Both the position numbers and the translations under genes were made by a program. Under the pieces are notes generated by a model. That model was not told the origin of the DNA. It did no database searches and was given only the letters and a program-made list of their open reading frames with translations. Below are positions 6,492 through 17,276 of a DNA stretch of 64,000 bases, in pieces. Numbering within the stretch: position 1 is the stretch's first letter; the number at the start of each line of letters is the position of its first letter. Origin of the DNA: Candidatus Woesearchaeota archaeon (lineage in GTDB: Archaea; Nanobdellota; Nanobdellia; Pacearchaeales; GW2011-AR1); contig CAYQOY010000001.1 in NCBI GenBank assembly GCA_964419275.1, forward strand, positions 15,218-79,217, read 5' to 3'.

Positions 6492-7343
6492 TCAGGTTTT
6501 ATCCTCGGAATTCAACTTTAAGTCGTCGATTGGGCTTTTAATCTTCTTTAATTCTTCTGAAGAAACATGCGCATAAAGCTGGGTTGTGCTAAGATTGCTA
6601 TGCCCTAATAGTTCTTGGATTAATCTTATATCTACTTTATTTTCCAAGAGATGTGTTGCAAAGCTATGCCTTAGCGTGTGGGGATGAACATCTTTCTTTA
6701 TTTTAGCTGCAATTGCTGCTCTTTTGATTATTTTTTGAATGTTTCTTTCTGTAATTTTTCCGTTTCTTCCGCTGAAAAGGTAAATCTCTTTTCTTTGTTT
6801 TTGATTTTCTGCTTGCTGTTTAAGCTCTTCAATTAAAAATTCCGGGATATTAAACAGCCTATCTTTTCTCCCTTTTGCTTGTCTAGCATATCCTGTTTTT
6901 TCTTCAAAAGATAAATCTGAAACTTTTAGGTTAGTTAGTTCAGATACCCGAAATCCGCATGCGTAAAGTAAACTTACAATTAGTTTGCTTTTTTTATTAG
7001 TTATTAAATCAATAAGTCTCGTGACTTCTTCTTTTGTTAAAACGGGGGGAATCCTCCTTTCTTTTTTTGGACGTTTTATGCCCTCAGTAATATCCTCTTT
7101 TAGCAAATTAGAGTAAGCGTATTTTACTGCAGACAAAAAAACAATTATTGAGGGGGAAGACATATTGGATATCTTAGACGCAATAAAGTTCTTAACATCC
7201 TGATTTTTGACTTGTTCTGGGTTCTTACTGCAGAAGTCTAGAAGTTCACTGTTCGCTCTTACATAATTCCTAATAGTATGCTCAGAATTTTTTGAAATCT
7301 TAAGCTCTACTTTTAGTTTATCTAAAAATTCTTGCTTGTTCAT
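6492..7343 (-). CDS. xerA: tyrosine recombinase XerA-like (integrase family)
   Basis: C-terminal catalytic signature: ...ARQAKGRKDR..., HTLRHSFATHLLENKVDIRLIQELLGHSNLSTTQLYAHV (R, HxxR, H, nucleophile Y). Confidence 0.85.
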   Translation of the reverse strand: MNKQEFLDKLKVELKISKNSEHTIRNYVRANSELLDFCSKNPEQVKNQDVKNFIASKISNMSSPSIIVFLSAVKYAYSNLLKEDITEGIKRPKKERRIPPVLTKEEVTRLIDLITNKKSKLIVSLLYACGFRVSELTNLKVSDLSFEEKTGYARQAKGRKDRLFNIPEFLIEELKQQAENQKQRKEIYLFSGRNGKITERNIQKIIKRAAIAAKIKKDVHPHTLRHSFATHLLENKVDIRLIQELLGHSNLSTTQLYAHVSSEELKKIKSPIDDLKLNSEDKT

Positions 7344-7429
7344 CTGTGCCTCTTTTACCCTAAAATTGTACGAACTTTTTATATGTTATGAAATTTCACT
7401 TTTCGTATTTTACTTGTTTCAGACGCGGT

Positions 7430-7457
7430 CCAAACAGCTGTTTAAACAGCTGTTTGG
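7430..7457. promoter_or_regulatory. perfect 28-bp palindrome CCAAACAGCTG-TTTAAA-CAGCTGTTTGG (11-6-11; dif-like or regulator-binding site)
   Basis: Read directly from the sequence. Lies about 90 bp upstream of the xerA start, in the divergent xerA/RRM intergenic region. Confidence 0.4.
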
Positions 7458-7589
7458 CTTTTGATCAACCAATTTATGAATTTTTCAAAAGGCATAACCT
7501 TAAAAATCGTGATTTATTGGAAAATGTAGAATAAGTAAATCTTGTTCTGTAATTAAATAAAACGTAGATTAATCTACAAGGATCGCGAA

Positions 7590-7943
7590 ATGAGTAAGAA
7601 ACTTTATGTAGGAAACTTGAACTTTAGTATGGATCACCAAAAGCTGAAAGACGCTTTCTCTGAATTCGGAGAAATCGAAGAAGCTGTGATTATACAAGAT
7701 AAGTTCTCTGGAAGATCCAAAGGATTCGGTTTCGTAACCTTCAAACAAGATGCAGATGCTGACAAGGCAATTGCTGCAATGAATGAAAAAGAAATTGAAG
7801 GCAGAAAAATAACTGTAAACGAAGCTAGACCAATGGAAGATAGACCATCTAGACCTCCAAGAAGAGACTTTGGTGGAAGAGGCGGAAGAGATGGCGGAAG
7901 ACCAGGTTTTAACAGAGATAGACCCCCTAGAAGATTTAACTAA
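7590..7943 (+). CDS. RRM-domain RNA-binding protein with RGG/Arg-Gly-rich tail
   Basis: RNP-2 LYVGNL and RNP-1 KGFGFVTF motifs. C-terminus PSRPPRRDFGGRGGRDGGRPGFNRDRPPRR. Confidence 0.8.
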   Translation: MSKKLYVGNLNFSMDHQKLKDAFSEFGEIEEAVIIQDKFSGRSKGFGFVTFKQDADADKAIAAMNEKEIEGRKITVNEARPMEDRPSRPPRRDFGGRGGRDGGRPGFNRDRPPRRFN

Positions 7944-8027: not shown

Positions 8028-8783
8028 TTATTTGAACTGATTGTTTAGTTCTTCTTCGTTTTCTTTTAAGTAAACTAAAGAAGACTTAACAAAAGACTCA
8101 AAATCTTTACTTTTTTCATATAACTTGTTAAGTTCTGCTAAAATAAATTTGCCTTTCAGAGTAATATTATCTAAAAAAGAATAGTAAAGCCGTTCTTTAG
8201 GCAAGTTTAGTTCTGAAACTTCTTTGGAAAAAAGAATTCCCGGAGCTATCTCGCTAAGTTTCCAAATTAAATGTGGGTGCTCAAACTCTTGTTCGTTTAC
8301 TTCTGGAAAGATCTCTTTTATTTTCTTAAAAAACAAAAAATGTGAAAGTTCGTGCAAAATTACTATTTTTACCTGTTCTTCATTCATTTTCCAGTAAAGA
8401 TCAAAAGTCTGGTATTTTAGATATCTGGGACAAATTGGATTTAAGGTTATTCTAGCCTTAAACTCTGAAAACTCCGGGCTCCAAGAGGTTTGTATTCTTT
8501 CTTGAATCAGCTTCAAGAAATTCTCGTTTACTTCTTTCCAAGCACGAGTATATCTTCCTTTTGCAAGGGCTAGGTCCTTGCTTCTCTCTTTTTCCTTTTC
8601 TTGAAAAAAATCCCAAATTGTTTGAGACTTATTTTTAGAAGATTTTAAGGATTCTATTAATTCAGGATAAGCTCTTTTAATGGATTCGTGAAAATGATAC
8701 TGGGGGTTTACGACTTTTTCTAAAAAAGAGAGATAATCTTTAATATTAGCTATTTCAAAAGTTACCTTTGGAAAGTCCTGCAT
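8028..8783 (-). CDS. hypothetical protein with HExxH motif (putative zinc metallopeptidase)
   Basis: 251 aa. VILHELSHFLFF contains HELSH. No other recognisable domain. Confidence 0.35.
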   Translation of the reverse strand: MQDFPKVTFEIANIKDYLSFLEKVVNPQYHFHESIKRAYPELIESLKSSKNKSQTIWDFFQEKEKERSKDLALAKGRYTRAWKEVNENFLKLIQERIQTSWSPEFSEFKARITLNPICPRYLKYQTFDLYWKMNEEQVKIVILHELSHFLFFKKIKEIFPEVNEQEFEHPHLIWKLSEIAPGILFSKEVSELNLPKERLYYSFLDNITLKGKFILAELNKLYEKSKDFESFVKSSLVYLKENEEELNNQFK

Positions 8784-8817: not shown

Positions 8818-8848
8818 GGTTGATGTGCACTTAGATTAACTTAGTGAA
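8818..8848. repeat. copy A (partial) of intergenic repeat GGTTG(A)TGCACTTAG(A/G)TTA(A/G)CTTAGTGA
   Basis: Matches the cores of copies B and C with 3 differences. Lies about 35 bp upstream of the 8783 start codon. Confidence 0.5.
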
Positions 8849-8923
8849 CACTGTTTTTTTGAGATGAAATTCTTTAGATTTTTGCCTAAAAATGTCGAGT
8901 TCGCATAATGTACGTTGTACGTA

Positions 8924-9020
8924 CTTTTTTAGTGTTTTTTCAGCTTTTTTCAAGGTTTTTTAGAGTTTTTCGCGGATTTTCTGGGTTTTTGAGATTTTTC
9001 TCAGCTTTTTTGAATTTTTG
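8924..9020. promoter_or_regulatory. about ten T5-6 tracts phased at ~10 bp (predicted intrinsically curved DNA) in a divergent promoter region
   Basis: ...gtactttttt agtgtttttt cagctttttt caaggtttttt agagttttt cgcggatttt ctgggttttt gagattttt ctcagctttttt gaattttt... Confidence 0.5.
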
Positions 9021-9044: not shown

Positions 9045-9140
9045 AAAAAATTATAAAAAACTATGTTTCTGACTGCGAAATTTTTTATCAATTTTCTCGC
9101 GCTTCCGGCAGGTTGTGCACTTAGGTTAGCTTAGTGAATA
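9045..9140. repeat. copy B of a ~95-bp direct repeat (TATA-like AAAATTATAAAAAAC ... TTTTTATCAATT.TCT...CTTCCGGCAGGTTGTGCACTTAGGTTAGCTTAGTGA)
   Basis: About 85% identical to copy C at 10313-10407. Ends about 38 bp before the ATG at 9178. Confidence 0.55.
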
Positions 9141-9177: not shown

Positions 9178-10314
9178 ATGTTCTCATATATTTTTTTAAA
9201 TGAATTTTTCTATTTTTTCTGGATGATTATTAATTTAAAGAGCGAGACAGATCTTTCTGGATTTTACGTTGTTTATGAAGGAGCTGCAAATTTCGAGAAA
9301 AAAGGACAGAGGGGGATTTCTCATTTGCTAGAACACCTTATGGCTAATGACCTCTTCTCCGTTGAGGAAGAGATAATCAAAGATGGAATTGACCTTAATG
9401 CAGAAACATCCCAAAACGACATGGTCTTTTTTATTACCGGATTAGAAAAAAACCTTGCTAAGTGGAGGGAACCTCTTCTTTCTTCTTTAAACAGATTAAA
9501 TTTCCCAGAAGAAAATTTTGAAAAAGAAAAAAATGTTGTTTTAGTGGAATATTTACAAGGTGTTTCAGATTTAGAGTCTAATCATCTTTTGAATCTCTGG
9601 AGAAATACATTAAATGTTTATGGTCCTTGGGGGTTAAAGGCTGACTTAGAAGGTTTAACCTGGACAGATTGTCAAGAACATTATAACTCTAGGTTTACCA
9701 AACCTTCAAAAATTATTAATGTTTCAAAAAATTTTAATTATAAAGACGATTCCATTCAATTTGAAACGCGAAAGTCGGAAAAAAGAATTAAACTGGGGGA
9801 TTATTCCGCTCCTTTAGAAGTGCTTGAATTCTCTCCAGAAATGACTTCAATTATCTGTATGTCTCCTATTATTGAAGAAGACTTTGCTTACGTTGATTTT
9901 ATCACCGATTTGATTTCAAGTGACTTAAATTCCCCTCTTTTTAAGAAGATTCGAGATAGGGGGCTTGCTTATGACTTGACTATGTCGGAAGAAAGGATTA
10001 ACAGGCAGGGGATTATTCTTTTAGGAACTTCTGTTTTAACTGAAAAAATAGAAGAAACCCTTGAAACAGTTGAAGAAGTTCTAAAAAACCCGAAAGAGTA
10101 CCTCTCTGAACGCCGAATTGATTTGATTAAATCTTCCTTAAAGGCTAGACAAGAAAAAGAAGAAATTTTAAGATTTGCGAACATTGATGAGTATATTCAT
10201 CCCGCTGAATGGAACGTTTACAACATATTAAATAAGATAGATTTAGCTAAAATCCAGGAAGTTTACAACAAGTATTTTAATTTTGACAATTGGTATATTT
10301 CTTGTTGCCCTTAA
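9178..10314 (+). CDS. M16 (pitrilysin) family peptidase-like protein, short form
   Basis: Inverted zinc motif HxxEH in GISHLLEHLMANDLF with downstream E (NAETSQND). 378 aa. Start may be the internal Met at 9223. Confidence 0.55.
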   Translation: MFSYIFLNEFFYFFWMIINLKSETDLSGFYVVYEGAANFEKKGQRGISHLLEHLMANDLFSVEEEIIKDGIDLNAETSQNDMVFFITGLEKNLAKWREPLLSSLNRLNFPEENFEKEKNVVLVEYLQGVSDLESNHLLNLWRNTLNVYGPWGLKADLEGLTWTDCQEHYNSRFTKPSKIINVSKNFNYKDDSIQFETRKSEKRIKLGDYSAPLEVLEFSPEMTSIICMSPIIEEDFAYVDFITDLISSDLNSPLFKKIRDRGLAYDLTMSEERINRQGIILLGTSVLTEKIEETLETVEEVLKNPKEYLSERRIDLIKSSLKARQEKEEILRFANIDEYIHPAEWNVYNILNKIDLAKIQEVYNKYFNFDNWYISCCP

Positions 10315-10407
10315 AAATTATAAAAAACCCTATTTTTGACACGAGATTTTTTTATCAATTCTCTAGAACTTCCGGCAGGTTGTGCACTTAGGTTAGCTTA
10401 GTGATAA
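10313..10407. repeat. copy C of the ~95-bp direct repeat
   Basis: Alignment to 9045-9140 is visible by eye. The core CTTCCGGCAGGTTGTGCACTTAGGTTAGCTTAGTGA is identical in the two copies. Confidence 0.55.
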
Positions 10408-10415
10408 TGAAAAAA

Positions 10416-10700
10416 GGCTGTTTGTCGCTGTTTTTTTGCTTTTAATTTTTTCTGAAAATTAAATTTTGTGGGTTAATAGAGAAGGTAATTTTATCGACGG
10501 AGAACTGACTGTTTAAGGGTGTTTAAACACCTGTTTAGAATTGCTTTTGGGTGTTTGTCGCTGTTTATCGCTGTTTAAACAGGCTGTTTGCCTTCTTTTT
10601 TTGACATAAACAGCTGTTTAAGTCTGTTTGTTAAGTGTTTATAGCTGTTTGAACTTATTTTTTCTGTAAATTTTATGAAAAATATTATGCTGTTTACGTC
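10416..10700. repeat. array of at least 12 CTGTTT / GTTTAAAC / AAACAGCTGTTT motifs
   Basis: Examples: ggctgtttgtcgctgttt, gtgtttaaacacctgtttag, gctgtttaaacaggctgtttg, aaacagctgtttaag, agctgtttg, gctgtttacg. All lie upstream of the ORF starting at 10716. Confidence 0.6.
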
Positions 10701-10715
10701 GATATTCTCCGACGG

Positions 10716-11372
10716 GTGCAAAACATTTTTAAACTGTTTATTATAATAACTATTATGTTTTGGTTTTTTAATAGAAAAAAAGAGGCAGAAGATATCAAAA
10801 AAGATGTTAAAGCGGGCTTTGAATCTGTAAAAAAAGACATTACATCTATTAGTGGATGGATAAATTACCTTGATTCTGAAAAAAATATTACCAAAAAAGA
10901 TGTTTTAGAGATAAAAGAGGATTTGTCTTCGATAAAAAAGGAACTTGAAGGATTAAAAAACGTTGTTTCTTTTATGGGCGAAGTTAAAACAAACAGGGTG
11001 TTTAAAACACCCGGGCGGGTGTTTGATAAACAAACAGCTGTTTTGCCTGTTCAAACAGCTGTTCAAACAGCTGTTCAAACACCAAATTTAGACAGATTTT
11101 CAACAACTGAAAGAGCAATCGTGTGGGTATTGCTAAATTCAGAGCTAAGGCTAAGTTATGATGACTTAGCTGCTGTCCTGGGAAAAGAGAGATCGACAAT
11201 TAGAGGTCAAATAAATTCGATAAAGCAAAAAAGTGACATAATTGAAGAAGTAGTTGAGTCAAATGGCAAAAAGAGAGTGTTTATACCTGAAGAAATCAAG
11301 GAAAAACTGCTCAAAAAGGCAAAAGTGAGAGTTAGCAGTACTAAAAAAGATAAAAAAAATGAAAAAAGTTGA
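10716..11372 (+). CDS. membrane-anchored coiled-coil protein with C-terminal winged-helix (HTH) domain
   Basis: N-terminal hydrophobic helix (LFIIITIMFWFF). Coiled-coil stretch DIKKDVKAGFESVKKDI...IKKELEGLKN. Low-complexity QTAVLPVQTAVQTAVQT linker. wHTH-like TERAIVWVLLNSELRLSYDDLAAVLGKERSTIRGQINSIKQK. Confidence 0.5.
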   Translation: MQNIFKLFIIITIMFWFFNRKKEAEDIKKDVKAGFESVKKDITSISGWINYLDSEKNITKKDVLEIKEDLSSIKKELEGLKNVVSFMGEVKTNRVFKTPGRVFDKQTAVLPVQTAVQTAVQTPNLDRFSTTERAIVWVLLNSELRLSYDDLAAVLGKERSTIRGQINSIKQKSDIIEEVVESNGKKRVFIPEEIKEKLLKKAKVRVSSTKKDKKNEKS

Positions 11373-11755: not shown

Positions 11756-12592
11756 TCAAAGATCTCTTAGTTGAATTATTGCGTTAAGTGAAGCAATTTT
11801 CTTTAAATTTTCGGAAATAGAAATTTTAATTTGTTTATTATTTACTTTTTCTTTTTGAATAGGGACACCTTTTTTTATCAATTTACCGACGTAATCTCTT
11901 ACAGAACTTTCACTAAGATTCAATTTCTGAGATAAACTTCGGTAATCTGAAAATCCTTGCTCTTCATCATACTGGTAAATTGCAGAAAAAACCAAAAACT
12001 CTTGCTCGGTAAGTTCTTTGAACTTTAACCTAACTTCTTTTTTTAGACTATCTAAGGAATTTAAAATTTCTAAAGCATTGTTAAGAGACTTGCTTTCTTT
12101 GTTGAATCCCCTTGTTTCAGAGATAAACCCTTCTTTTTGTGTCTGTTGGTTTGTCTGTTGGTTTGTCTGTTTGTCTGTTGGAACCCCTCCATTTCCAGTG
12201 GAAAAGCTCATATTTTGAGCCTTAGAAGGCTTAAAAGGGTAATTATCTGTTGGATTATCTGTTGGACTTGTTGGGTTAACCTGTCTGTTTGTCTGTTTTT
12301 CTAAGTTATCTGTCGGACTATCTTTTGAATGCTCTGAATACTTTTCAGAACAATTTTCGTCTAATCTTTCAGGAGAATACTGAAATTTAGAGTTGTATTC
12401 TGCACTATTTAAGTTAAAACCTTCTTTGGAAGAATAATCTGATTTCTTAAGGTAACTCTCTTCTTGATTAAGAAGAATCTCATCAAGTAAATCTCTTAAC
12501 TGATTTAATTGAAATTTAATCAAATCCATCTCGTTTCTCAAAGAAGCGATATCTGTTTTAACCTTGTCAAATGCCTCTTTGATTGGTTCCAT
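11756..12592 (-). CDS. coiled-coil protein with low-complexity linker and C-terminal winged-helix domain
   Basis: N-terminal IASLRNEMDLIKFQLNQLRDLLDE coiled coil. PTDNPTDN / QTNQQTNQQTQ repeats. C-terminal LTEQEFLVFSAIYQ...SDYRSLSQKLNLSESSVRDYVGKLIKKGV wHTH. Confidence 0.5.
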   Translation of the reverse strand: MEPIKEAFDKVKTDIASLRNEMDLIKFQLNQLRDLLDEILLNQEESYLKKSDYSSKEGFNLNSAEYNSKFQYSPERLDENCSEKYSEHSKDSPTDNLEKQTNRQVNPTSPTDNPTDNYPFKPSKAQNMSFSTGNGGVPTDKQTNQQTNQQTQKEGFISETRGFNKESKSLNNALEILNSLDSLKKEVRLKFKELTEQEFLVFSAIYQYDEEQGFSDYRSLSQKLNLSESSVRDYVGKLIKKGVPIQKEKVNNKQIKISISENLKKIASLNAIIQLRDL

Positions 12593-15755: not shown

Positions 15756-16004
15756 CCCCCTCACCCCTCAATTTCCAGTAGAAACATTTAAAAAAGAAAA
15801 ATTGATTTTTATTTTTTATTTTTTATTTATAAAATTATATATTATATATTATATATATTATAATAGTATAATAATATAAAGTTAATCGGTTTTCCATAAG
15901 AAATCTTGGTGTCTTTCTTATTCAGTAGTTATAATCCTTTATATAATATTTTAAGTTTTTTCGTTGGAAAAATTTATAATGAAGATGTTCCACTGGAAAT
16001 GAAC
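15756..16004. promoter_or_regulatory. oriC: replication origin (oriC): two inverted ORB (origin recognition box) elements flanking an AT-rich DUE, immediately upstream of orc1/cdc6
   Basis: Right ORB 15978-16004: GTTCCACTGGAAATGAACGTGTGGGAG. Left ORB (bottom strand of 15756-15788): TTTCTACTGGAAATTGAGGGGTGAGGGG. Both match the archaeal ORB core TTCCAGTGGAAAC followed by a G-string. Between them lies ~190 bp of >85% AT (ttatatattatatattatatatattataat). Confidence 0.65.
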
Positions 16005-16046
16005 GTGTGGGAGATATTATAAAAGTAAAATAAATAAAAAAATAAA

Positions 16047-17276
16047 ATGGGAGTAATTTTAGACGAAATTTTTGAATCTTTTGATAAAAATAAAATCTTC
16101 AAAAATAAAGAAGTTTTACAATCTAATTACAAACCTGAAGATATTCTTCATAGAGATGAGCATATCAAACAAATTGCTTCTATTCTTGCACCGGTGTTAA
16201 GAGGAGAAAAATGCAGTAACCTTTTCCTTTATGGAAAAACCGGAACAGGAAAGACCCTTTCAATTCAATATGTTCGAGACGAGATGCTTAAACGTGTTAA
16301 AAAAGAAGCAGAATTTATTCTCAAGATAGAATATCTTAATTGTAAATTAAAAAAGATCTCAGATACAGATTATAGAATTTTAGCAGAGTTAATTAAAAAA
16401 TTAGGGGGGCAAGTTCCCGACACAGGGCTTCCAACAGAAAGAGTTTATAATAAGTTCATCAATTTAATCGATTCGGAAAAGCAAGTCATTGTTCTTATTT
16501 TAGACGAAATCGATCAGGTTGTTAAAAAGATTTCTAGCGATTTTCTGTATAACTTAACGCGTCTTAATAACGAACTTTCTAAATCTAAACTATGTATTGT
16601 GGGAATAAGTAACGATCTAACTTTCTTAGATGAAATAGACCCCAGAGTTAGGAGTTCTCTTTCTGAAGAAGAGATTGTTTTTTTACCCTATAATGCAATT
16701 CAGCTTCAAGAAATTTTAAGAAAAAGGGCTTCAGAGGCATTCAAGGAGAATGTTCTTCAAGAAGGAGTTATTGAAAAGTGTGCTGCTTTTTCTGCTAAAG
16801 GTTATGGGGATGCTCGAAGAGCATTAGATTTGTTAAGAGTTGCAGGAGAACTTGCAGAGAGAGATAATTCTGAAAAAATAACTTTTAAGCATATAGATGA
16901 AGCAAATAAAAAATTAGAAAGTGACAAAGTTTTAGAAATAATTGAGTCTGAGCCGAAGCCTTTCCATTACGTTCTTAATTCAATAATTCAATTAACCGAG
17001 CAAAGAGTAAAAGAGGGGAAATCTTCTCATGAACCCATTTTTACCGGAGACGTTTATAATAACTATGCAGATTTTTGCAATAGAAATAAAATAGAAGTTC
17101 TAACACAAAGGAGAGTCTCAGATATAATTCAAGAATTTGATATGTTTGGAATAATCAATGTAAGGGTTGTTTCAAAAGGGAGAGGAGGAAGAATGAGAGA
17201 AATTAATTTAGTATTGCCTCAAGAAGTTATCTCTAAGGTAAAAGAGATTATTAGAAATTCAGTAGATTTTAGATGA
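16047..17276 (+). CDS. orc1: Orc1/Cdc6 replication initiator
   Basis: Walker A LYGKTGTGKT, Walker B VLILDEID, sensor ISND. C-terminal winged helix. 409 aa. Confidence 0.9.
   Translation: MGVILDEIFESFDKNKIFKNKEVLQSNYKPEDILHRDEHIKQIASILAPVLRGEKCSNLFLYGKTGTGKTLSIQYVRDEMLKRVKKEAEFILKIEYLNCKLKKISDTDYRILAELIKKLGGQVPDTGLPTERVYNKFINLIDSEKQVIVLILDEIDQVVKKISSDFLYNLTRLNNELSKSKLCIVGISNDLTFLDEIDPRVRSSLSEEEIVFLPYNAIQLQEILRKRASEAFKENVLQEGVIEKCAAFSAKGYGDARRALDLLRVAGELAERDNSEKITFKHIDEANKKLESDKVLEIIESEPKPFHYVLNSIIQLTEQRVKEGKSSHEPIFTGDVYNNYADFCNRNKIEVLTQRRVSDIIQEFDMFGIINVRVVSKGRGGRMREINLVLPQEVISKVKEIIRNSVDFR

Follow-up and report, generated by a model that had tools for sequence, protein, structure and literature searches.

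A perfect palindrome beside xerA in a Pacearchaeales genome is probably a satellite of a lineage-wide CTGTTT-box family and not a dif site

Is a perfect 28-bp palindrome next to a gene for a XerA-type tyrosine recombinase the dif site of its chromosome, or an element of another kind that has the same size? The question is raised by 64,000 nucleotides from Candidatus Woesearchaeota archaeon (GenBank assembly GCA_964419275.1, contig CAYQOY010000001.1, positions 15,218 to 79,217 of the forward strand), a stretch that was analysed as a whole and is called the window here. The window is archaeal: its GC content is 33%, and it carries cdc6/orc1, genes for archaeal ribosomal proteins, and those for both PolD subunits. 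An earlier note on this DNA had proposed the palindrome as a candidate dif site, and had added that it might equally be the strongest member of an operator family with further copies at 10.5-11.1 kb. Comparison with related genomes supports the second proposal. The palindrome is most likely an operator-like site, that is, a predicted protein-binding repeat within an uncharacterised family, and another sequence 1.5 kb away, at 8898-8925, is the better candidate for dif.

The palindrome, CCAAACAGCTGTTTAAACAGCTGTTTGG, occupies positions 7430-7457 and is perfect over its full length, with two 11-bp arms and a central spacer, TTTAAA, that is itself symmetric. Its existence and its uniqueness within the window were confirmed, as a search of the window that tolerated up to three mismatches returned this single match, and none was found in 100 shuffled sequences. 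It is also the longest perfect palindrome of the window, the runner-up being 16 bp long; in 200 mononucleotide shuffles the longest palindrome had a mean of 17 bp and a maximum of 28. The element sits in the divergent intergenic region 7344-7589 between xerA and a gene for an RRM-domain protein. From its near edge to the xerA start codon (7343) there are 86 bp, in agreement with the distance of about 90 bp given before, and 133 bp separate it from the start of the RRM gene (7590).

The sequence is naturally parsed as CC-(AAACAGCTGTTT)x2-GG: a 12-bp palindrome is duplicated in tandem, and four alternating AAACAG and CTGTTT hexamers lie between CC and GG. Because a 12-bp palindrome in tandem automatically gives a 24-bp palindrome, the 11-6-11 appearance results from a 2+12+12+2 structure, and 11-6-11 is not the natural parsing. 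This geometry is by itself of little information: inverted repeats of the 11-6-11 type with up to two mismatches occur 29 times in the window and about 20 times in shuffles. The size and spacing of a dif site, which had been an argument for that label, are present, and they are a by-product of the duplication. The 12-mer AAACAGCTGTTT is found again at 10608 and 11032, with one-mismatch copies at 10525, 11053, and 11065, and CTGTTTAAACAG is also present at 10571. The suspected recurrence of the centre and half-sites is therefore real, with 12-mers at 10525-10619 and 11032-11076.

Units of the form [C/G]TGTTT reach a density of at least four per 200 bp at only two places in the window, namely 7430 and 10400-11100. 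The second place holds the primary array (10419-10740, plus strand), in which about 18 units, mostly direct and spaced 10-13 bp, lie within the spacer 10315-10754. It lies upstream of a gene for a 205-residue coiled-coil and winged helix-turn-helix (wHTH) protein, here called wHTH1 (10755-11372, plus strand), and has 17 units per 300 bp, compared to a window mean of 0.8. The array contains the palindromic boxes GGTGTTTAAACACC, CTGTTTAAACAG, and AAACAGCTGTTT, and box patterns of the family include AAACA-SS-TGTTT and TGTTTAAACA. For comparison, related contigs (L-numbers) were gathered via a genome scan and homologue searches; these are metagenome-assembled genomes of Pace-, Woese-, and Nanoarchaeota, and L037-L097 are viral contigs from IMG/VR. 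In the 11 genomes used for this purpose (the window, L003, L007, L011, L025, L028, L031, L032, L033, L099, and L100), upstream of each wHTH1 homologue examined stands an array with a density of 8-18 units per 300 bp (background about 1), and the region that encodes its linker always has a second box cluster. The palindrome shares the unit of this family, and the motif co-occurs with its candidate binder across genomes.

The domains of wHTH1, a candidate binder of the boxes, were assessed from homologues, an AlphaFold model, and Foldseek. The true start is ATG 10755 and not GTG 10716, because homologues begin with MFW. The model (mean predicted local distance difference test score 71) consists of a long N-terminal helix at residues 2-76, a predicted coiled coil, a disordered region at 77-116 with QT[A/G]V repeats, and a wHTH domain at 117-187. 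The closest structural matches of the DNA-binding domain are MarR-type repressors such as MepR and SlyA, which bind short palindromic boxes near promoters; these are generic winged-helix matches, so no specific function can be transferred. Similar to MarR-type repressors, wHTH1 has one box unit between the TATA-like element and the start of its own gene. Unlike them, it has the reversed order of an N-terminal coiled coil, disordered linker, and C-terminal wHTH, and its sites are arrays of 13-18 phased units that also extend into the coding region. No Pfam family was matched (only HTH_11 and DUF1664 below threshold), and a profile search against PDB sequences returned none. The family comprises 2363 homologues, which are about 70% identical, all from Pace-, Woese-, and Nanoarchaeota, and all annotated as hypothetical. 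An unannotated family with more than 2000 members gains a predicted DNA motif that can be tested in vitro. Literature searches on the CTGTTT motif, the Pacearchaeota origin, or the winged-helix proteins returned nothing relevant.

A second cluster of boxes lies inside the wHTH1 coding region (11028-11082, plus strand). It consists of AAACAGCTGTTT followed by AAACAGCTGTTC twice and encodes the linker segment KQTAV..VQTAVQTAVQT. Among homologues this segment reads KQTxV..VQTxVQTxVQTP, with Q, T, and V invariant; x alone varies, and in the DNA it falls on the centre of the palindrome. Thr is encoded by ACA all 21 times out of 21, compared to 44% in background genes, and Gln by CAA in 20 of 21; these codon choices preserve AAACA-NN-TGTT in the DNA. 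The uniform Thr codon suggests selection at the DNA level. The linker coding sequence may thus be constrained by a DNA-binding motif, although repeat homogenisation could contribute.

An alternative candidate binder is encoded next door. wHTH2 (11756-12592, minus strand) is a second coiled-coil and winged-helix protein, with weak Pfam matches to DnaD_N and HTH_24, and its gene adjoins wHTH1 in all loci examined. The position of wHTH1 relative to the origin is fixed, at 3-5 kb from cdc6-polD/oriC in all loci that show both genes.

In close relatives, the palindrome is degenerate or missing. L034 and L035, whose XerA is 93% identical, read CTGTTTAAACAT-CAAACAGCTGTTT-AAATAGCTGGTT at this position, with 5 of the 28 bases changed and the symmetry lost; the L034 version carries a third family unit, CTGTTTAAACAT. 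The palindrome and a segment of about 50 bp around it are absent from L036 (XerA 87% identical) and from L025, which is fully syntenic and has a wHTH1 that is 91% identical. On both sides of the missing segment the DNA is essentially invariant. The putative xerA promoter block, which contains CATAACATATAAAAAGTTCGTACAATT and includes a TATA-like box and GTTCGTACAA, is unchanged across five relatives, and about 125 bp upstream of the RRM-gene ATG (7470-7589) are nearly invariant. The palindrome hence occupies the one stretch of this intergenic region that varies, the rest being invariant. Such turnover is as expected for a regulatory site.

Beyond these relatives, the exact 24-mer was found in only four metagenome contigs. 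In L024 it is in the middle of a perfect palindrome of 56 bp, CCAGTAGATAATTTTT-(24-mer)-AAAAATTATCTACTGG, at 1-56 of the contig, with a wHTH1 homologue 140 bp downstream. In L022, which matches L008 and comes from an unrelated Woesearchaeote, the gene order is different; the 24-mer precedes xerA by 42 bp, and no wHTH1 gene is present within 10 kb of it. The L021 copy adjoins a tRNA gene and the L023 copy is on an unclear contig. An origin of the palindrome from a virus or plasmid att site was considered and is not supported, since the 24-mer has no match in viral contigs. Further satellites, in the form of composite CTGTTT boxes, occur at L032 7547-7580, L033 7956-8014, and L031 7410-7421. The composite boxes of L031-L033 are found where a radical-SAM (lysine-2,3-aminomutase-like) gene has its 3' end, beside a serine-recombinase gene, with xerA not nearby, and represent a second case of boxes that adjoin a gene for a site-specific recombinase.

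The recombinase next to the palindrome was taken for a XerA-like protein before, and this identification is correct. The gene xerA (6492-7343, minus strand) encodes 283 residues with Pfam matches to Phage_integrase (1e-43) and to a SAM-like N-terminal domain (4e-10). The best PDB matches are XerA of P. abyssi (4a8e, 3e-43) and of T. acidophilum (5hxy, 2e-36), and the alignment with these solved relatives covers the conserved HxLRHSFATH, LLGH, and Y motifs. At E<=1e-60, 2904 homologues were found in Pace-, Woese-, and Nanoarchaeota; a look-up of the exact window protein returned no record. By its domains and relatives, the product is a bona fide XerA.

The palindrome, as dif or as a second Xer site for the resolution of chromosome dimers, has some features to recommend it. 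Its 28 bp show the 11-6-11 geometry, xerA is 86 bp away, dif-type sites often stand directly upstream of xerA in the lineage (L009, L012, L014, L099, and L100), and the identical 24-mer stands upstream of xerA in L008/L022. However, sequence, conservation, and polarity all speak against it. As a reference for scoring, the bacterial dif of E. coli, GGTGCGCATAATGTATATTATGTTAAAT, was used. The palindrome matches it at only 5 of 28 positions, compared to 17-21 for the dif-type sites of the lineage, and has no similarity to the half-site GTTCGYAYAA kept in the xerA promoter. Sites of tyrosine recombinases require an asymmetric central region for directionality, and full symmetry, including the spacer TTTAAA, leaves the palindrome without polarity. 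Its 5 changed bases in L034/L035 and its absence from L036 and L025 contrast with 8898-8925, which is kept at 28 of 28, and its units recur in arrays elsewhere. The proposal of a dif site is therefore not borne out: the comparison largely refutes it, and we consider it extremely improbable. The palindrome should not be annotated as dif; the candidate for that label is 8898-8925.

This candidate, AGTTCGCATAA-TGTACG-TTGTACGTACT (8898-8925, plus strand), has an asymmetric 6-bp spacer between imperfect 11-bp arms, of which 8 of 11 positions agree. It was found with a half-site scan based on a conserved element, AGTTCGTAYAAT, that lies just downstream of the xerA TATA-like box in the upstream regions of XerA homologues; the window copy of this element is at 7366-7375 on the minus strand. 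In some genomes this element makes up one half of a complete 11-6-11 site, as in L009 (AGTTCGTACAA-TATACA-TTGTGCGAACC), L012 (AGTGCGTATAA-GGTACA-TTACACGCAGT), and L014 (GGTGCGTATAA-GGTATA-TTATATGCCCT). With half-site scores of 11/11 and 10/11, 8898-8925 is the sole strong match in the window, and 18-19 of its 28 positions agree with E. coli dif. L025 has the identical 28 bp, within an intergenic spacer that is 78% identical and contains indels. Similar sites occur 0.1-8 kb from xerA in L002, L003, L007, L009, L011, L012, L014, L099, and L100. In 294 kb, a loose threshold gave 10 dif-type sites compared to 0.8 in shuffles, and a strict threshold gave 6 compared to 0 (30 shuffles). The pattern was derived from a subset of the sites; those of the window, L003, L007, L011, L099, and L100 were found afterwards. 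The site at 8898-8925 thus combines 11-6-11 geometry, an asymmetric spacer, and likeness to dif with conservation, occurrence once per locus, and linkage to xerA, and chromosome-dimer resolution is assigned to it, as a candidate, instead of to the palindrome. Literature searches on Xer/dif in DPANN archaea found nothing relevant. The consensus (A/G)GTTCG(Y)A(Y)AA-N6-TT(R)T(R)CG(W)AC offers a search pattern for dif in further genomes of the DPANN group.

Similar to Pyrococcus abyssi, Thermoplasma, and the Sulfolobales, the window has a XerA and an imperfect 11-6-11 site, whereas the palindrome shares only length and spacing with archaeal dif. Thermococcales dif matches bacterial dif at 14-18 of 28 positions, and Sulfolobales dif is reported to be close to xerA (Cortez et al. 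2010, PMC2958812); the site at 8898-8925 is equally dif-like and likewise near xerA. Compared to dif in bacteria and Thermococcales, it lies about 7 kb from oriC and not in the terminus region. The idea that dif would sit beside its recombinase, as difSL does with xerS and difH with xerH (PMC5357621), holds for the lineage, which also forms a recombinase-site module (L009, L099, and L100), but the sequence involved is another one and not the palindrome. In contrast to difSL/xerS and difH/xerH, the recombinase is of the XerA family, its site has a length of 28 bp and a spacer of 6 bp, and FtsK does not take part as a partner.

Unlike known archaeal XerA/dif pairs, many relatives have the site directly before xerA and then an extra half-site in the promoter. 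In L009, L099, and L100, the order is dif, about 25 bp, TATA-like box, half-site, and the xerA ATG, which suggests that the dif-xerA module is probably ancestral. In the window, the module is split by the insertion of two genes: the RRM gene lies between the dif candidate and xerA in both the window and L025, and a gene for a 251-residue protein is present in addition in the window. The inferred xerA core promoter (7366-7384, minus strand) consists of the TATA-like ATATAAAAA and the dif-type half-site GTTCGTACAA (7366-7375), and the same arrangement of TATA and GTTCGYAYAA is found upstream of xerA in L004, L005, L007, L009, L010, L099, and L100. The conserved half-site right after the TATA-like box suggests that XerA autoregulates its own promoter via this single half-site.

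What, then, is the palindrome? We regard it as probably a recently acquired satellite binding site, predicted from comparison of genomes, of the lineage-wide CTGTTT-box system and not a Xer site. Its core is exactly two copies of AAACAGCTGTTT, the unit that also builds the wHTH1 arrays. We infer that wHTH1, or its constant neighbour wHTH2, would recognise TGTTT/AAACA half-sites via the winged helix. The N-terminal coiled coil would oligomerise wHTH1, its long flexible linker would permit binding to both direct and inverted repeats, and the double box could be occupied by two dimers or a tetramer. Divergent TATA boxes are inferred at about 7380 and 7503, each about 60 bp from the palindrome, which overlaps neither core promoter. 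Binding at this distance upstream of both could modulate the xerA promoter, the RRM-gene promoter, or both, and looping between the palindrome and the main array 3 kb away is possible.

Several points weigh against this reading. The binder is assigned entirely through genomic association. Arrays of 13-18 phased units far exceed a simple autoregulatory operator, and their role may be non-transcriptional; some satellites, as in L032 and L033, lie at the 3' ends of convergent genes, a position at odds with promoter control. The absence of the palindrome from close relatives shows that it is dispensable, and its perfect symmetry could be a by-product of a single 12-bp slippage event. The L008/L022 copy overlaps the last codons (KQLFKQLF) of an upstream HAD gene, so that part of that sequence is explained by coding.

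An alternative is that the palindrome has no function of its own, being the neutral by-product of a short insertion and 12-bp replication slippage of a palindromic sequence. The segment lies in the only non-conserved intergenic part, missing from L025/L036 and decayed in L034/L035, a tandem copy of a 12-bp palindrome gives the 24-bp palindrome automatically, and L008/L022 has the same 12-bp duplication inside a coding region. However, from the base composition we estimate that the exact 12-mer should turn up about once per 8 Mb, yet it occurs twice here, and an unrelated genome has it again upstream of xerA. A deeply conserved array family has this 12-mer as its consensus unit, and the third unit in L034, CTGTTTAAACAT, indicates that several family units have accumulated at one spot. 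We consider a neutral origin unlikely, though with an appreciable chance of being correct. A structural role, as a cruciform or hairpin barrier, as a terminator, or as a symmetric bidirectional promoter with B recognition elements (BRE) in the order BRE-TATA-BRE centred on TTTAAA, is very unlikely. As single-stranded DNA, the palindrome folds into a hairpin with a 12-bp stem at -13.2 kcal/mol (z = -5.5), some family members lie between convergent gene ends, and the TTTAAA centre resembles an archaeal TATA box. But both flanking genes diverge and leave nothing to terminate, and better-placed, invariant TATA-like elements, about 60 bp away on either side, remain in those relatives from which the palindrome is missing. 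Moreover, most family members are direct repeats incapable of forming hairpins, and Rfam at permissive thresholds gave only sub-threshold chance matches in 6-17 kb of the window.

Instead of transcriptional operators, the boxes could be sites for the loading or bridging of a system that organises the chromosome near its origin, similar to a centromere or iterons, in which the palindrome as a satellite would help to fold the xerA-dif-oriC neighbourhood. Plasmid iterons with their Rep proteins and type II/III centromeres (parC/ParR-like) also have many direct repeats of about one helical turn upstream of the gene for the presumed binder, and the CTGTTT locus likewise mixes direct with inverted repeats and lies next to a replication origin. 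Its 13-18 units at a helical phasing of 10-13 bp are more like such plasmid systems than like operators, wHTH1 is more conserved than XerA (about 70% compared to about 65%) and stays 3-5 kb from cdc6/oriC where both are in view, and all boxes of the 64-kb window fall within 7.4-11.1 kb, near oriC at 15.8-16.0 kb. In contrast to the plasmid systems, the locus is chromosomal and lineage-conserved, only 6-7 bp of the repeat unit are conserved, and no Rep or motor protein was identified. Against this explanation stands the purely architectural nature of the argument, and no partner ATPase was noticed in the gene tables of the neighbourhood, where no search was aimed at one. The L008/L022 double box is far from any wHTH1 gene, and the last CTGTTT unit, between the wHTH1 TATA and ATG, has the classical position of an archaeal repressor site. 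We give this explanation of the palindrome a small chance. A broader conjecture, which we hold as doubtful but slightly more credible, is that the arrays and the highly conserved coiled-coil and winged-helix protein next to oriC constitute an undescribed chromosome-maintenance system of the DPANN lineages Pace-, Woese-, and Nanoarchaeota, either centromere-like or for replication and segregation control, with satellite boxes, the palindrome among them, that would tie xerA-dif to the origin in a physical or regulatory way.

The oriC candidate (15762-16009), upstream of cdc6/orc1 (16047-17276), has inverted repeats TTTCCAGTAGAA/TTCCACTGGAAA that flank an AT-rich stretch, the presumed unwinding region, and resemble the established consensus of origin recognition boxes (ORB). 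The origin candidate reported nearby before is thus confirmed, 8.3 kb from the palindrome. No CTGTTT cluster is present at 15762-16009, and an ORB or origin function of the CTGTTT boxes was rejected, as the ORB-like repeats there are without such a cluster. The tiny genomes compared here pack the dif candidate, xerA, the candidate array-binding protein, itself uncharacterised, and oriC into about 10 kb. The analysis yields a usable DPANN dif consensus, a dif-xerA module whose promoter carries a half-site, and, for a large uncharacterised family, a motif that can be tested.

The remaining features of the neighbourhood concern the genes and repeats around these sites. The RRM gene (7590-7943, plus strand), divergent from xerA, encodes a glycine/arginine-rich RNA-binding protein (Pfam RRM_1, 4e-25). 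A perfect 14-bp palindrome, GTAGATTAATCTAC, is present at 7564-7577, just before its start codon, and the conserved upstream region could form a structured 5' leader. The 251-residue open reading frame (8028-8783, minus strand), located between the RRM gene and the dif candidate, has a HELSH (HExxH-like) motif, and its product matched no Pfam family. The syntenic L025 lacks this frame, and L034 seemingly has its C-terminal end, which places an indel next to dif. An insertion at dif of the IMEX type (integrative mobile elements exploiting Xer) was considered for this gene; no second dif-like site was found at its far border.

Immediately to the right of the dif candidate, ten phased T4-7 tracts with a period of 9-11 bp (8926-9020, plus strand) are likely to form intrinsically bent DNA that flanks dif. 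The tracts are kept in L025 (8203-8275), where the bases between them vary. A flank rich in A-tracts was also observed on one side of the dif-type sites of L003 and L007. The architecture of the dif candidate is a widely used Xer-type core, as 61 viral contigs (L037-L097; GC 29-62%) carry AGTTCGTATAA-N6-TTATACGTACT. Examples such as AGTTCGTATAA-TGTTTG-TTATACGTACT, which are close to the window candidate, may serve Xer-like recombinases carried by phages as attP or as inversion sites.

The primary array is bracketed by an inverted repeat, (AT)CGACGGAGAA at 10495-10504 and TTCTCCGACG at 10705-10714, with equivalents in L003, L025, L031-L033, L099, and L100. After TTCTCCGACG follow the TATA-like box of wHTH1 and then the last CTGTTT unit before the ATG. 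Another repeated element of 22 bp, GTGCACTTAGGTTAGCTTAGTG, is found at 8825-8846, 9115-9136, and 10382-10403 and is often preceded by TTCCGG-N4-GTT. It has no Rfam match and occurs in 2-3 copies per locus in L002, L003, L006, L007, L009, L025, L028, and L031-L033, where it is confined to the xerA-dif-wHTH1 neighbourhood and always oriented as wHTH1. Two of its window copies stand at the end of a longer repeat, about 95 bp in length (9046-9140 and 10313-10408).

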